Origin: a virus
Taxonomy: Duplodnaviria; Heunggongvirae; Uroviricota; Caudoviricetes
Reading direction: 5' to 3' (one strand)
DNA: 33,563 nucleotides
Virus record (IMG/VR): IMGVR_UViG_2541047945_000006
In this document: positions 17,088-22,040 of the stretch, piece by piece
How positions within the stretch are numbered: position 1 is the first letter of the stretch
How the letters are laid out: every line of letters begins with the position of its first letter
Notes under the pieces: model-generated
The model's input: only the letters and a program-made list of their open reading frames with translations
What the model was told of the DNA's origin: nothing
Databases searched by the model: none
Translations under genes and position numbers: made by a program

Positions 17088-17162
17088 GGGTCAGTCGTAT
17101 AAAGGTCATTACGGAAGGCTGTTAACCTTCTTATCGTGGTTCGAGTCCACGCTGTCCCGCCA
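17088..17162 (+). tRNA. tRNA-like gene, predicted anticodon GUU (Asn)
   Basis: Manual cloverleaf: acceptor GGGTCAG/CTGTCCC (one mismatch), U8, D-loop with GG, perfect 5-bp anticodon stem with loop CTGTTAA, T-arm CGTGG-TTCGAGT-CCACG, encoded GCCA 3' end. Confidence 0.5.
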
Positions 17163-17167
17163 AACAT

Positions 17168-17243
17168 GCTGGTTTAGCTCCAATGGTAGAGCGGTCGCCT
17201 TGTAAGCGAATGGGTAGCGGTTCAAGTCCGTTAACCAGCACCA
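17168..17243 (+). tRNA. tRNA-like gene, predicted anticodon UGU (Thr)
   Basis: Manual cloverleaf: perfect acceptor GCTGGTT/AACCAGC, D-arm GCTC/GAGC, anticodon loop CTTGTAA, T-loop TTCAAGT, encoded ACCA 3' end. Confidence 0.6.
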
Positions 17244-17361: not shown

Positions 17362-17607
17362 ATGAAATCAATGGACAAAATCTCAACTGGCATTGCCTAC
17401 GGAACATCTGCTGGTAGTGCGGGATACTGGTTTTTGCAGTGGTTGGATCAGGTCAGTCCGTCACAGTGGGCTGCGATTGGAGTGCTTGGAAGCCTTGTGT
17501 TGGGTTTTCTCACTTATCTGACAAATCTGTATTTCAAAATCAGAGAAGACAGACGAAAGGCTGCGAGTGAACCGCCCCGGGTTTCCTGGAGAGTATTTTA
17601 TCTGTGA
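17362..17607 (+). CDS. S: Phage-21-type pinholin S21 with IS-altered C-terminus
   Basis: Dual-start MKSMDKI and SAR-type TM region match S21 from memory; the last codons (ARGE-stop in intact S21) are replaced by a read-through into the IS end ([13 protein letters not shown]). Confidence 0.8.
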
Positions 17608-17609
17608 AC

Positions 17610-18500
17610 TCAGGCTGCCAGATCATCGTTTCCGATGGAAGCATAATAAGCTTTTTCTGCTTCTGCCGGAGGAGTATGGCCCAGCCTTTCCAGCAATCGT
17701 CGATTGTTATACCAGTCCACCCACGTGAGTGTGGCCAGTTCCACTTCTGCACGGTTTTTCCAGCTCTTACGGTGTATTACCTCCGCTTTGTAAAGACCAT
17801 TGATGCTCTCCGCCATCGCGTTGTCATACGAGTCGCCTGTACTTCCTGTTGATGCCAGTAATCCGGCTTCCTTAAGCCGCTGTGTGTAGGCCAGCGATAC
17901 ATACTGAGAACCTTTATCACTGTGATGGACCGTGCCGGACGGTCGACGGGCCCATAACGCCTGCTCCAGTGCATCCAGCACGAATGTCGTCTCCATGGAC
18001 GATGAGACCCGCCACCCCACAATGTATCCGGCAAACACATCAATGATGAACGCCACATAGACGAAGCCCTGCCATGTGCTGACGTAAGTAAAATCAGCCA
18101 CCCACAGCTGGTCAGGTCGTTCTGCCACGAACTGACGGTTTACGCGGTCGCCTGCGGCAACGGCTTTCCGGCTGATGGTCGTACGGACCTTTTTACCCCG
18201 GAGAACACCGGCAAGTCCCATAACCGCCATGAGACGTGCCACAGTGCATCTGGCCACTCTGATACCTTCCCGTAACAACTGACGCCAGACTTTACGCACA
18301 CCGTATACCTTGTGATTTTCATCGTATACGCGCTGTATCTCTTTCTTCAGCCAGTCATCGCGCTGCGCACGGGCACTGCGTTTATCCGGATGATGTCGCT
18401 GTTGCTGACAGTGGTAATACGTTGACGGGGCAATATGCAGTTCGCTGCATAGCGGTCCGACCCCGTACTGCTCACGCAGCTTATCCAGCAGTGGCATCAT
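17610..18500 (-). CDS. IS3-family transposase OrfB (DDE integrase-like catalytic domain)
   Basis: 296-aa ORF of typical IS3-family OrfB character; overlaps orfA as expected for -1 frameshift fusion. Confidence 0.85.
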
Positions 18501-18823
18501 TTTTTCCAGAGGCGGTCGAACTCCGCCTTCGCAAAATAAGCGGAAGCCTGGCGAAGGATATCGTTACTGCGGCGCAGTTCACGATTTTCACGCTCCAGCT
18601 CTTTCAGACGCTGACGTTCAGCGGTGGTGAGCCCTCCATCACCGCCCCCGGTATCCCGCTCATGCTGGCGAACCCAGACACGCAGAGTCTCCGGCGTACA
18701 GCCAATCTTTGGAGCAATGGAACAAATTGTCGCCCATTGTGAGTCATATTCGCCCTGACTTTCCAGAACCATACGGACTGCCCGTTGACGGACTTCAGGG
18801 GAAAAACGAGTATTTTTAGTCAT
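18497..18823 (-). CDS. IS3-family transposase OrfA (HTH plus leucine zipper)
   Basis: 108-aa ORF ([57 protein letters not shown]...) that I recall as IS629/IS1203-type OrfA. Confidence 0.85.
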
Positions 18824-18889
18824 CCTGTTTACCTCTTTCTCAGGAAGTTTAGTCTCCAGGATTCCCGGGGCGGTTCAGAGAGGTGAATA

Positions 18890-20023: not shown

Positions 20024-20164
20024 TCTGAATTTCACAGCGCATCTCACGCGCATATTAACGAGAGCCTTTCAGTAAGCGAGCCTGAGAAATGCCGTTATAG
20101 GTGGCGACCTCTCTCGGGCGGCTTTTCTGTGAGACAGGCTCACTTTCTAAAAGGTAAAGACGCT

Positions 20165-20662
20165 ATGAAAGCAATCACGCTTTTTAATACACCGATTCGT
20201 GTTGATGAATCAGGAATGATCTGCCTCACTGATATGTGGAAAGCCAGTGGTAAAAGTGAATCTGAATCTCCGTACCACTACCTGCGAAACAAGCAGACCA
20301 AAGAGTTCTTAGCCGAGCTGGAGAAAAACCACGAATCTGTGGTTTTTACTGAGCGCGGTGTACACGGTGGAACATATGGCGGGAAGTTTGTTGCTTATGA
20401 TTATGCAGCATGGCTAAACCCCGGGTTCAAGTACGCGGCCTATAAAGTCCTCGATGACTACTTCACCGGAGAACTTCAGCATCGCAACAGCTTAAGTGCG
20501 CAGCTCAACATGAAATGTCATGAGTTTGACCAGAAGAAAGACATGGCGAGCTTCTGCGGACAAGGGCTGGCGGCATGGCGCTATACGAAGCCAGTGTTGG
20601 TCGCTGAGATTAACTCCCTGGCTAACCAGCTGCAGATTACGATCCCCGGGCTTCCGGGATGA
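20165..20662 (+). CDS. KilA-N domain protein (moron between lysis and packaging genes)
   Basis: Start at internal ATG (MKAITLFN...); KilA-N/APSES-like features (...GTYGGKFVAYDYAAWLNPGFKYAAYKVL...). Confidence 0.6.
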   Translation: MKAITLFNTPIRVDESGMICLTDMWKASGKSESESPYHYLRNKQTKEFLAELEKNHESVVFTERGVHGGTYGGKFVAYDYAAWLNPGFKYAAYKVLDDYFTGELQHRNSLSAQLNMKCHEFDQKKDMASFCGQGLAAWRYTKPVLVAEINSLANQLQITIPGLPG

Positions 20663-20916
20663 GTGATCGTGTCATTGAATGCGCCTCCAGAGCGGGGCGC
20701 GACTTCTCAGAGTTCATGAAAGGCGAGAAGGGCATGATGGAAGCATTGGCCTCGGTGGATGAGTTTGGCGAGCAGCTGCGCCTCAACGGCTGTGTCAATC
20801 ATCACTTTGTTAGCTACATGATGCGGAACTCGATCATGCAGGCATTCATGGACATGGCAAAAGCCGAGAGGAAAGAAGAGCGCCGGCGTAAGCGAGCGGA
20901 AGCAAAAGCGAAGTAG
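20659..20916 (+). CDS. Hypothetical protein (85 aa) with Arg/Lys-rich C-terminus
   Basis: Translationally coupled to the KilA-N gene (ATGA overlap). Confidence 0.5.
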   Translation: MSDRVIECASRAGRDFSEFMKGEKGMMEALASVDEFGEQLRLNGCVNHHFVSYMMRNSIMQAFMDMAKAERKEERRRKRAEAKAK

Positions 20917-21196
20917 CCATTACAAAGCCCATTTACGGGTGGGCTTGATAATGAAACCGGAATTTATTCTGGGCCACCAGTTAACGGCAGTACCACGAAA
21001 CAACCCAAGCCAGTAAGCGGGGAAATAACACTGGCAGCCACTGAAAGATGAACCTCCAGCCTTATGGCAAAAAAGATTCTTTGTGGTGGCGGACTGATGG
21101 AAAGACATCGGTTATTGCAGAGGCCATTCAATGAGCGGTCTCGACAATGAGTAAAAGCACAATATGTGAGGCAGAAACGAATTGGTTATATTGAGT

Positions 21197-21340
21197 TTAG
21201 GATGGATTTGAGCCCATAGGGAGTGGGAACGTAACCCAGCCCCCGAGGTAGAAGAGAGCGACATCGACCATGGTGAGTTCTTCGGTATTCGAGGTTAAGC
21301 GTTTTACCGTATTCATGAATTTTTCTGAATATTTCCTCAT
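21197..21340 (-). CDS. Hypothetical small protein (47 aa) inside the IR-bracketed segment
   Basis: ATG at 21338-21340 preceded by AGGGGG SD; the C-terminal codons are encoded by the left inverted repeat; taken from the tail of track ORF 21197-21889. Confidence 0.3.
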   Translation of the reverse strand: MRKYSEKFMNTVKRLTSNTEELTMVDVALFYLGGWVTFPLPMGSNPS

Positions 21341-21475
21341 GGCAACCCCCTTGCTTTTGGCTATATCGCTAACAACTTTTACTGCTTTTGGTATCAGTGG
21401 ATAAAACAAAAGTCCTACTGCTGTAATGTTTTTCACCACTTGAACGATATCGCTTCCGGCACTCCCTATGGGCTC
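21210..21475. repeat. Pair of perfect 16-bp inverted repeats (GAGCCCATAGGGAGTG / CACTCCCTATGGGCTC) bracketing a 266-bp segment
   Basis: Exact reverse complements at 21210-21225 and 21460-21475, in the non-coding region upstream of the small terminase gene. Confidence 0.7.
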
Positions 21476-21512
21476 GTAGGGAGATAGTTTAACTAAATAA
21501 AGAGAATAAGCA

Positions 21513-22040
21513 ATGGCACTCACCGACAAACAAGAAATGTTCTGTCGCGAGTACCTCATCGATTTAAACGCCACGCAAGCGGCTATTCGGGCGGGGTACA
21601 GCGCAAAGACAGCTAACCGTACCGCATCCGAAAACCTGTCAAAACATGACATCAAGTTAAGAATCGCCGAACTGAAAGCGCAACGCAATGATCTTGTTGG
21701 TATTAACGCAGAATATGTACTTAATCGCCTTATTGAAATCGACCAGATGGATGTGCTCGACATTCTCCTGCAAAACGGCGAGTTAAAGCCAATTAAAGAC
21801 TGGCCTAAGGTATGGCGCACAACGCTATCAGGAATGGATGTCGTGGAGATGGTATCCGCAGATAGCGCCGCACTTCTGAAGAAAATCAAATGGCCTGATA
21901 AGGTTAAAAACCTCGAACTTCTTGGTAAGCATGTTTCTGTTCAGGCGTTTAAAGAACAAGCTTCTCACGAATTAACAGGCAAAGACGGCGGCGCAATTCA
22001 GATTGAAACATCACCGATGAGCACTCTATTTGGAAAATGA
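21513..22040 (+). CDS. Terminase small subunit
   Basis: 175-aa ORF immediately upstream of and overlapping the large terminase (ATGA); N-terminal HTH-like region (MALTDKQEMFCREYLIDLNATQAAIRAGYS). Confidence 0.85.
   Translation: MALTDKQEMFCREYLIDLNATQAAIRAGYSAKTANRTASENLSKHDIKLRIAELKAQRNDLVGINAEYVLNRLIEIDQMDVLDILLQNGELKPIKDWPKVWRTTLSGMDVVEMVSADSAALLKKIKWPDKVKNLELLGKHVSVQAFKEQASHELTGKDGGAIQIETSPMSTLFGK

Follow-up and report, generated by a model that had tools for sequence, protein, structure and literature searches.

Why should a perfect inverted repeat bracket a small gene immediately upstream of the terminase genes of a temperate phage? The question is raised by IMG/VR virus record IMGVR_UViG_2541047945_000006, a stretch of 33,563 nucleotides (the window) which represents a lambdoid, P22-like prophage; all positions below refer to its full length and the minus strand is read leftwards. 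Two 16-nt arms, GAGCCCATAGGGAGTG (21210-21225) and CACTCCCTATGGGCTC (21460-21475), are 100% complementary, are separated by 234 nt and flank or overlap a 47-codon minus-strand open reading frame (ORF). An earlier note, made from the sequence alone, had described this repeat and a 47-aa ORF with a strong Shine-Dalgarno (SD) sequence, and both descriptions were borne out (Table 1). It had offered three explanations: an invertible or miniature mobile element, a pair of regulatory protein-binding sites near the packaging genes, or a small toxin-like gene with structured flanks. The interpretation put forward here, to which a probability of roughly one half is given, is that each arm supplies one strand of a conserved RNA helix, which brings together the message ends of a small leftward accessory gene (moron) of the prophage. 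On this view the repeat seen in the DNA most likely reflects a helix formed in RNA and does not mark the limits of a mobile or invertible element.

The repeat is real and non-random. No other perfect inverted repeat with arms up to 500 nt apart in the 33.5-kb window is as long, the runners-up having 13 nt, and a repeat of 16 nt was reached in one of 300 windows simulated with a first-order Markov model, a chance of about 0.3%. Two details of the earlier description had to be amended. The ORF belongs to a longer open frame, as discussed below; and the left arm was said to encode the last five codons of the ORF, and in fact it encodes residues 39-44 (P-L-P-M-G-S), the final three codons and the stop codon falling outside it.

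A search of 5.8 billion proteins gave six clusters related to the protein encoded by this unit. The contigs of these protein clusters and DNA-pattern scans of viral, genome and metagenome collections made up a variant set of 17 loci from genomes, viromes and metagenomes (L and P numbers below denote individual loci and proteins), which reduce to eight distinct sequence variants. Scans of metagenomes and viruses with the two-arm pattern, and a protein-based locus search, returned only copies of variants already known. One further hit of the genome pattern scan, L016 (Chelativorans), had only a 20-mer in common with the set and was discarded as a chance match. In all variants the first base of the 5' arm and the last base of the 3' arm span exactly 266 nt, with the ATG at offset 135. 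All 17 loci are collinear with their flank, in one orientation, and the unit invariably lies beside the 5' sequence of terS, the gene for the small terminase subunit.

RNA folding, which the earlier note had proposed as a check, gave -86.7 kcal/mol for the window RNA, compared with -68.5 ± 5.2 for dinucleotide shuffles (z = -3.5), and paired the arms in a long-range helix. When the minus-strand sequences of the variants were folded together with RNAalifold, the 16-bp repeat grew to 38 long-range pairs. In the consensus the repeat is followed by a 2-nt bulge, 3 bp, an excursion of ~28 nt on the 3' side and then 19 inner pairs, which join leader nucleotides 21-42 to the middle of the ORF. In the eight-variant alignment 303 of 304 pair cells are standard pairs, 12 of the pairs being variable. 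Two of these have changed on both sides, both in L007 (G-C to A-U and C-G to U-A), and at a third the window has C-G, where most variants have U-G and L005 has U-A. The other nine vary on one side only, and all the changed cells but one (U·C, in L007) remain G·U; in helix 2, which is 99.3% paired, eight pairs vary in this one-sided way. Sliding the partner strand by 1-3 columns lowered pairing to 33-47%. Where the 3' arm has changed, the peptide differs (PMDL or PMSS for PMGS) but pairing is retained.

The G·U pairs also indicate the strand. On the minus-strand RNA the 304 cells comprise 282 Watson-Crick and 21 G·U pairs; read on the plus strand, each of the 21 would turn into an A·C mismatch. 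The one-sided transitions, of which about 11 are independent, all fall on the side on which G·U is tolerated, and our own estimate from the pair counts puts this strand bias at p ~5e-4 under an unbiased process. The minus-strand RNA is also more stable than the plus-strand RNA in seven of the eight variants. As G·U is tolerated on the minus strand only, the comparison argues that the conserved helix is selected in minus-strand RNA. Neither protein sites nor cruciforms predict such tolerance, so the substitutions speak against DNA sites, and the suggestion of a protein-binding pair near the packaging genes did not survive: tolerance of G·U on one strand alone is the signature of an RNA and not of a DNA site. 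Long-distance 5'-3' pairing, as in type I toxin mRNAs, was found on in silico and comparative evidence, between putative transcript ends. A search of Rfam with the region gave no family at the gathering threshold and nothing meaningful at E values up to 10.

Table 1 Features of the repeat-bracketed unit, in window positions
Feature	Position	Strand	Remarks
47-codon ORF with stop codon	21197-21340	minus	ATG 21340-21338, stop 21199-21197; peptide MRKYSEKFMNTVKRLTSNTEELTMVDVALFYLGGWVTFPLPMGSNPS
SD sequence, AAGGGGG	21346-21352	minus	5 nt upstream of ATG; invariant in 8/8 variants, as is the ATG
In-frame GTG	21434-21436	minus	sole upstream start candidate common to all variants; 79-aa product in window; no SD sequence; within inner helix
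Candidate sigma-70 promoter	21486-21513	minus	-35 TTGCTT 21513-21508, 16-nt spacer, -10 TAAACT 21491-21486; -35 overlaps first base of terS ATG
Outer helix, 5' strand (right arm), RNA GAGCCCAUAGGGAGUG	21460-21475	minus	16/16 pairs kept in 8/8 variants; pairs 3, 4 and 5 covary with 3' arm
Outer helix, 3' strand (left arm), RNA CACUCCCUAUGGGCUC	21210-21225	minus	overlaps ORF codons 39-44
Inner helices, 5' strand, in leader, GGA + AGCGAUAUCG.UCA..UGGUGA	21433-21457	minus	RNAalifold consensus
Inner helix, 3' strand, UCACCAUGGUCGAUGUCGCU	21257-21276	minus	within ORF, codons ~22-28 (L-T-M-V-D-V-A)
UCC pairing with leader GGA	21226-21228	minus	extends outer helix to 19 bp; pairs 29-31 / 258-260 of alignment A4, invariant
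Local 7-bp hairpin, CUCCCUA / UAGGGAG	CTCCCTA 21462-21468, TAGGGAG 21477-21483	minus	window-type variant only; competes for 5' arm
Whole cassette	21151-21512 (approx.)	minus	between junction conserved in HK97/HK022/P22-like phages (to 21150) and terS start codon (21513)

The right arm had also been placed within a longer hairpin. This hairpin is present in the window, but the seven other variants read CTGCTTC-ACGAGTCC at the site and cannot form it, and since it is missing from every one of them it was rejected as part of the conserved mechanism. Its motif TAGGGAG occurs three times in the window-type variant.

The 47-codon ORF is under purifying selection. The ratio of non-synonymous to synonymous substitution rates (dN/dS) is 0.19, and the variable columns are distributed over the three codon positions as 9/6/17, with a third-position excess. 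The N-terminal half of the peptide is charged and the C-terminal half moderately hydrophobic. The peptide core, M[KR]K..EK..NTVK.LT..TEE..MVDVA.FYLG.WVTFPLPM, is conserved; the C-terminal tail past the 3' arm is not. Homology among the variants stops ~2-5 nt past the 3' arm, so that the tails diverge and the products range from 47 aa in the window up to 68 aa (62-68 aa in the relatives). In size (below ~60 aa) and in having a ribosome-binding site of its own, the window ORF belongs with the small ORFs. The only PHROGs match was to the unnamed family phrog_36259 (a 120-position profile), and a HMMER profile run against 1.84 billion representatives found the family itself and two PG_binding-like repeat proteins, P0007 and P0008. 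The similarity to the latter is unconvincing, being the summed score of 6-7 weak repeat matches to a stretch encoded by the leader (GSAGSDIVQVVKNITAVGLLFYPLIPK, window 21400-21470), and is probably spurious.

In L005, L006, L008, L009 and L014 (5/7 variants) a sigma-70-like motif, TTGATA/TTGCTA-16-TAAACT/TAAAAT, matches the consensus at 9 of 12 positions. In all five, 6-7 nt separate the end of its -10 element from the first base of the 5' arm, so that the +1 position would coincide with the start of the helix. This promoter position, the place where the helix begins and the point at the 3' arm where homology ceases together led the helix to be read as pairing the two ends of one transcript; transcription of the cassette, its start site and its 3' end are in this sense inferred from sequence. 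A plus-strand motif, TTAACA-17-TATCAG, was not counted as an antisense promoter because the T at position 6 of the -10 element is missing.

To the right, homology among the variants behaves differently from that on the left: it extends at least 100 nt beyond the right arm, through the promoter-like motif and into the first ~50-100 nt of terS, which is entered antisense. It is kept even in L005, L007, L008 and L009, where terS survives only as a decayed remnant and functional terminase genes are located at another place. The unit persists even in decayed prophage remnants, beside a truncated terS in L009 and beside Ivy in L007. The first ~40 nt of terS form a hairpin (window 21516-21555; L008 4788-4830; L007 ~1160-1200). 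The non-coding terS remnant of L008 keeps this hairpin, followed by T8, as a plus-strand terminator-like site found in L008 alone, and the diverged remnant of L007 has an even better one, with a 14-bp stem. The terS remnant may have been kept because it serves as an RNA or promoter element instead of coding.

The setting of the unit is that of an exchangeable gene. Rightwards in the window come the Q antiterminator, two tRNAs, the lysis genes, a KilA-N/ORF11CD3 protein (20129-20662) and an 85-aa phrog_875 protein, and beyond the repeat region terS (Terminase_2, 21513-22040), the large terminase and portal. By megablast, positions 21100-21150 are common to HK97, HK022, HK620 and many P22-like phages, and from ~21494-21507 on, at the start of terS, the sequence is common to hundreds of prophages. 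The interior, by contrast, was found in two of 5,426 complete E. coli genomes, with one copy in each, and tblastn and blastn searches of sequenced phage isolates gave no match. E. coli lysogens that carry the unit are MMC-J-0105 (NZ_CM128543.1, ~1,600,850-1,601,180) and A11 (NZ_CP028763.1). In sister prophages the same slot is filled by unrelated small acidic minus-strand genes, of 78 aa (L003 2680-2916) and 72 aa (L004 2877-3095), which begin ~25 nt from the terS ATG; that they occupy exactly this position makes the slot a cassette hot spot. Any promoter of these two genes would have to sit antisense within the 5' coding region of terS. With shared flanks, a unique interior and swapped genes, the segment ~21151-21512 behaves as an exchangeable accessory cassette, being present, absent or replaced between the same flanking genes as expected of a moron as that term is applied to P22-like phages (PMC2629481).

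The earlier remark that nothing in the standard lambdoid map explains the unit is half right at most, since its position is a known type of variable moron slot. The bor gene of phage lambda is expressed in the lysogen from the opposite strand, just downstream of Rz, and the cassette shares the map position and orientation of bor. Taken together, the comparative evidence upholds the third of the original options, the small gene with structured flanks, and sharpens it to a rare moron cassette with a 5'-3' RNA helix supported by covariation.

On this basis a mechanism can be proposed. A weak sigma-70 promoter of the cassette's own, abutting the start codon of terS, would drive leftward transcription, in antisense to the late operon of the phage. 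The transcript, of ~266 nt, would start at or a few bases from the right arm and functionally end at the left arm, and would consist of a leader of ~120 nt, the strong SD sequence, the ATG and the 47-aa coding region. Its first ~43 nt would pair with the second half of the ORF and the 3' arm in an interrupted helix of ~38 bp, closing the whole message into one compact domain. With both ends buried, the full-length message would be stabilised and would need no intrinsic terminator. Since ribosomes would have to melt ~38 bp to finish the ORF, the helix could also limit or delay the output of a potentially harmful small protein, and nucleolytic trimming at either end would alter the fold. Expression would take place from the prophage; once lytic growth is under way, the late transcript, which converges on the gene and is fully complementary to it, could silence it. 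The most likely role of the helix, to stabilise the message and limit translation, is proposed by comparison with the closing helices of the hok and aapA1 type I toxin mRNAs, and any toxicity of the peptide is likewise hypothetical.

Several results weigh against this interpretation. The eight variants are few and closely related (92% mean column identity), and the covariation statistics are modest, 11-12 of 500 column shuffles attaining the observed values. The promoter is weak in the window, where it matches at 7 of 12 positions and is separated from the arm by three extra bases; a promoter scan called nothing in 20900-21700, and L007 lacks the sigma-70-like motif altogether. Past the 3' arm a terminator scan detected nothing of the intrinsic type. 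When both strands of all the variants were searched, no antisense promoter or terminator proved to be conserved, which leaves no antitoxin candidate, the complementary late transcript not being a dedicated one; the divergent flank contained no direct repeat of the element. The hydrophobicity of the peptide is borderline, the best 19-aa Kyte-Doolittle mean running from 1.45 (window) to 1.66 (P0006), as against 2.52 for Hok, and searches of Pfam, NCBIfam and PADLOC with the 47-aa, 62-aa and 108-aa products found no toxin, defence or Pfam homology. The SD sequence is not locked as in hok or aapA1, its unpaired probability in the full-length fold being 0.35-0.60. Lastly, the leader is open in the frame of the ORF in all variants, with a dN/dS of 0.29. 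The gene may, therefore, encode a longer protein, and the helix would then lie within the coding sequence.

This last possibility is unlikely overall but deserves to be weighed with some care. The 47 codons make up the 3' portion of an open frame that extends further upstream, and the real product could be of 79 aa, from the GTG at 21436 (from which P0004 has been called), or of 108 aa, from a GTG at 21523, as in the coding sequence at 21197-21523 called by the Prokaryotic Genome Annotation Pipeline (PGAP; WP_024244326.1); the helix would then be a secondary feature of the mRNA, for example one affecting stability. The frame is open from the 5' arm to the ATG in 8/8 variants, PGAP and PHROGs (phrog_36259) both treat it as one protein, and AlphaFold2 gave an all-helical model with four helices for the 93-aa frame. 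The confidence of that model is, however, low: the predicted local distance difference test (pLDDT) is 58, the predicted template modelling score (pTM) 0.33, and the helix predicted for the hydrophobic segment has a pLDDT below 55. The leader columns vary as 13/6/16 over the codon positions, a bias which is not significant in our own chi-square test (p ~0.1). Neither GTG is preceded by an SD sequence and that at 21436 is buried in the inner helix, whereas the internal ATG has a strong and invariant one. In L008, L009 and L013 a stop codon directly ahead of the 5' arm excludes the 108-aa form. Outside the family the 1.84 billion representatives held no homologues, weak repeat matches aside, and an extended protein would relabel the ORF while leaving the helix unexplained. 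The 47-aa product is favoured over an N-terminally extended one.

An RNase III processing or decay site, in the minus-strand message or in the plus-strand late transcript upstream of terS, is a rather improbable explanation of the helix. A near-perfect duplex of 16+3 bp, extended by further helices, is long enough for an RNase III substrate; the helix is predicted on both strands, with probabilities of 0.76-0.99 for its outer part, and it lies 37 nt upstream of the terS ATG. On the plus strand, however, the loss of the 21 G·U pairs and the weaker fold in seven of eight variants count against such a site, as does the location of the unit away from a functional terS in L005, L007 and L008. On the minus strand cleavage would remove the stop codon and the 5' end and so keep the peptide low, which is compatible with the RNA-helix interpretation. 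An element acting at the DNA level, whether a unit like a miniature inverted-repeat transposable element (MITE), an invertible switch or paired sites bound by a packaging or regulatory protein, is very improbable. A perfect inverted repeat does bracket a short segment beside the packaging genes, and TAGGGAG is present three times in the window-type variant, but its third copy is not conserved. Searches for further copies and for a second orientation came out negative: the unit occurs in one place per genome, was seen in two of the 5,426 E. coli genomes and was missing from the phage isolates, and all 17 loci show a single orientation. The terminal repeats do not bound a MITE or a unit derived from an insertion sequence (IS), since homology passes the right arm into the promoter and the terS remnant, and the flanks ...GGATGGATTT and GTAGGGAGAT... 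carry no target-site duplication; nor is there an adjacent invertase gene. The asymmetric homology, single copy, constant orientation and missing target duplication rule out a MITE-like or invertible element, and pairing is kept through G·U, which neither DNA recognition nor DNA hairpins tolerate. On this comparative evidence the mobile, invertible and protein-binding readings of the repeat are rejected. Equally hard to credit is a chance or relic palindrome without function. The family is tiny and young and the core 11 bp of each arm are invariant, making most of the helix uninformative for covariation, yet a repeat of this length is expected in only ~0.3% of windows, 12 pairs vary with 303 of 304 cells still paired, and compensatory changes have been made at the cost of amino acids.

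With the RNA-helix interpretation thus preferred, the cassette can be set beside known systems. The full-length hok mRNA has a long-distance helix between its 5' and 3' ends (tac/fbi) and is stable and translationally inert until trimmed at the 3' end (PMC9841398). The cassette resembles it in having a putative message of a few hundred nucleotides, a peptide of ~50 aa and an extreme 5' end that pairs with the 3' end, in a compact, highly structured RNA on a mobile genetic element, and in having an open frame upstream of the small ORF, comparable with mok (PMC9841398). It has no sequence homology to hok, however; its 3' arm lies within the ORF and not in the 3' untranslated region; its upstream frame is in phase with the ORF, whereas mok overlaps out of phase; its hydrophobic segment is C-terminal and much weaker; and no Sok-like antisense gene was found for it. 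In the ~250-nt aapA1 mRNA of Helicobacter pylori a long-distance interaction of its 5' end with its 3' end explains the stability of the message and sequesters the SD sequence, and 3' trimming activates translation (PMC5416894). The cassette, with 266 nt from arm to arm, is similar in length and would likewise be closed at its ends. Further points in common with these systems are a small ORF served by its own SD sequence and persistence in decayed prophage remnants (L007, L009). Unlike in aapA1/IsoA1, SD sequestration and activation by trimming are not supported by prediction, the accessibility of the SD sequence being the same after removal of the 3' or the 5' arm (seven variants, thermodynamic prediction); no antisense RNA was identified, and host and genetic context differ. 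As the SD sequence is not locked, no antisense RNA or toxin homology was found and the hydrophobicity is borderline, the unit is not filed as a type I toxin-antitoxin system. The idea of a small toxin-like gene with structured flanks thus comes closest to the evidence as regards its flanks, which form a covariation-supported RNA helix, but not as regards SD sequestration, an antitoxin or toxin homology. It is proposed that the unit resembles type I systems in one respect, namely that a fold-back helix would stabilise the message and limit its translation.

Like lambda bor and other lambdoid morons, the cassette is a small gene between the lysis and packaging genes, directed against the late operon, present, absent or replaced among syntenic phages and apparently with a promoter of its own. 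It differs from them in that no intrinsic terminator was found and a long-range RNA helix would delimit it instead, and in having a product without kinship to Bor or to a named family. In rRNA precursors and at the sites of phages T7 and lambda, sequences flanking a functional RNA form stems that RNase III processes. The cassette shares with them a long duplex of sequences flanking a functional unit, but its 3' strand is coding sequence and nothing points to a longer precursor.

What is new here is an element missing from Rfam and a protein so far known only as an unnamed PHROG or hypothetical protein. If the interpretation is right, the hypothetical protein phrog_36259 would become a small-ORF cassette whose main conserved feature is RNA architecture, and a further candidate among the small proteins or toxins expressed by lysogens. 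The fold-back design between 5' and 3' ends, so far mainly known from type I toxin mRNAs, would have a new and unrelated case, placed at the lysis-packaging junction of a temperate phage, and a compact model of ~270 nt would be available for the control of mRNA stability and translation by end-to-end pairing. More speculative, and itself doubtful, is the idea of an undescribed family of fold-back mRNAs for small proteins or toxins in P22-like and lambdoid enterobacterial prophages, in which a 5'-3' clamp in place of a terminator would define and stabilise the transcript and the late transcript would serve on induction as the antisense switch-off in place of a dedicated small RNA; this would be a type I-like module wired into the decision between lysogeny and lysis. 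The immediate impact is modest, as the family is very rare, with eight variants across all the collections searched.

Some further observations were made on the leader and its surroundings. A stretch of 26 nt in the leader, 21378-21403 (minus strand, TATCCACTGATACCAAAAGCAGTAAA), is invariant in seven of the eight variants, including its synonymous positions, and overlaps the plus-strand TTAACA-17-TATCAG motif, which is preceded by TG; it could be a candidate binding site or antisense promoter. Upstream of the element, on the same strand, a 58-aa ORF (MG[FL]FDALKDMVTSKEP...GGHDHRYNTG.DRTPAQREGDKKRREG) is conserved in L007 (956-1132) and L008 (4586-4762), with no match in NCBIfam.

Elsewhere in the window an IS3-family insertion of 1,310 bp (17568-18877) has its orfA and orfB on the minus strand (18823-18497 and 18500-17610) and carries an ALIL frameshift pseudoknot at 18426-18542. 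It is missing from the otherwise 99.9-100% identical prophage of E. coli MMC-J-0105. The insertion point, marked by a 3-bp duplication, lies ~10 nt short of where the class II holin gene ends, and the window prophage is, therefore, probably impaired in lysis. The two tRNA genes of the window (17088-17240), between the Q antiterminator and the lysis genes, correspond to tRNA-Asn and tRNA-Thr in the matching RefSeq prophage.

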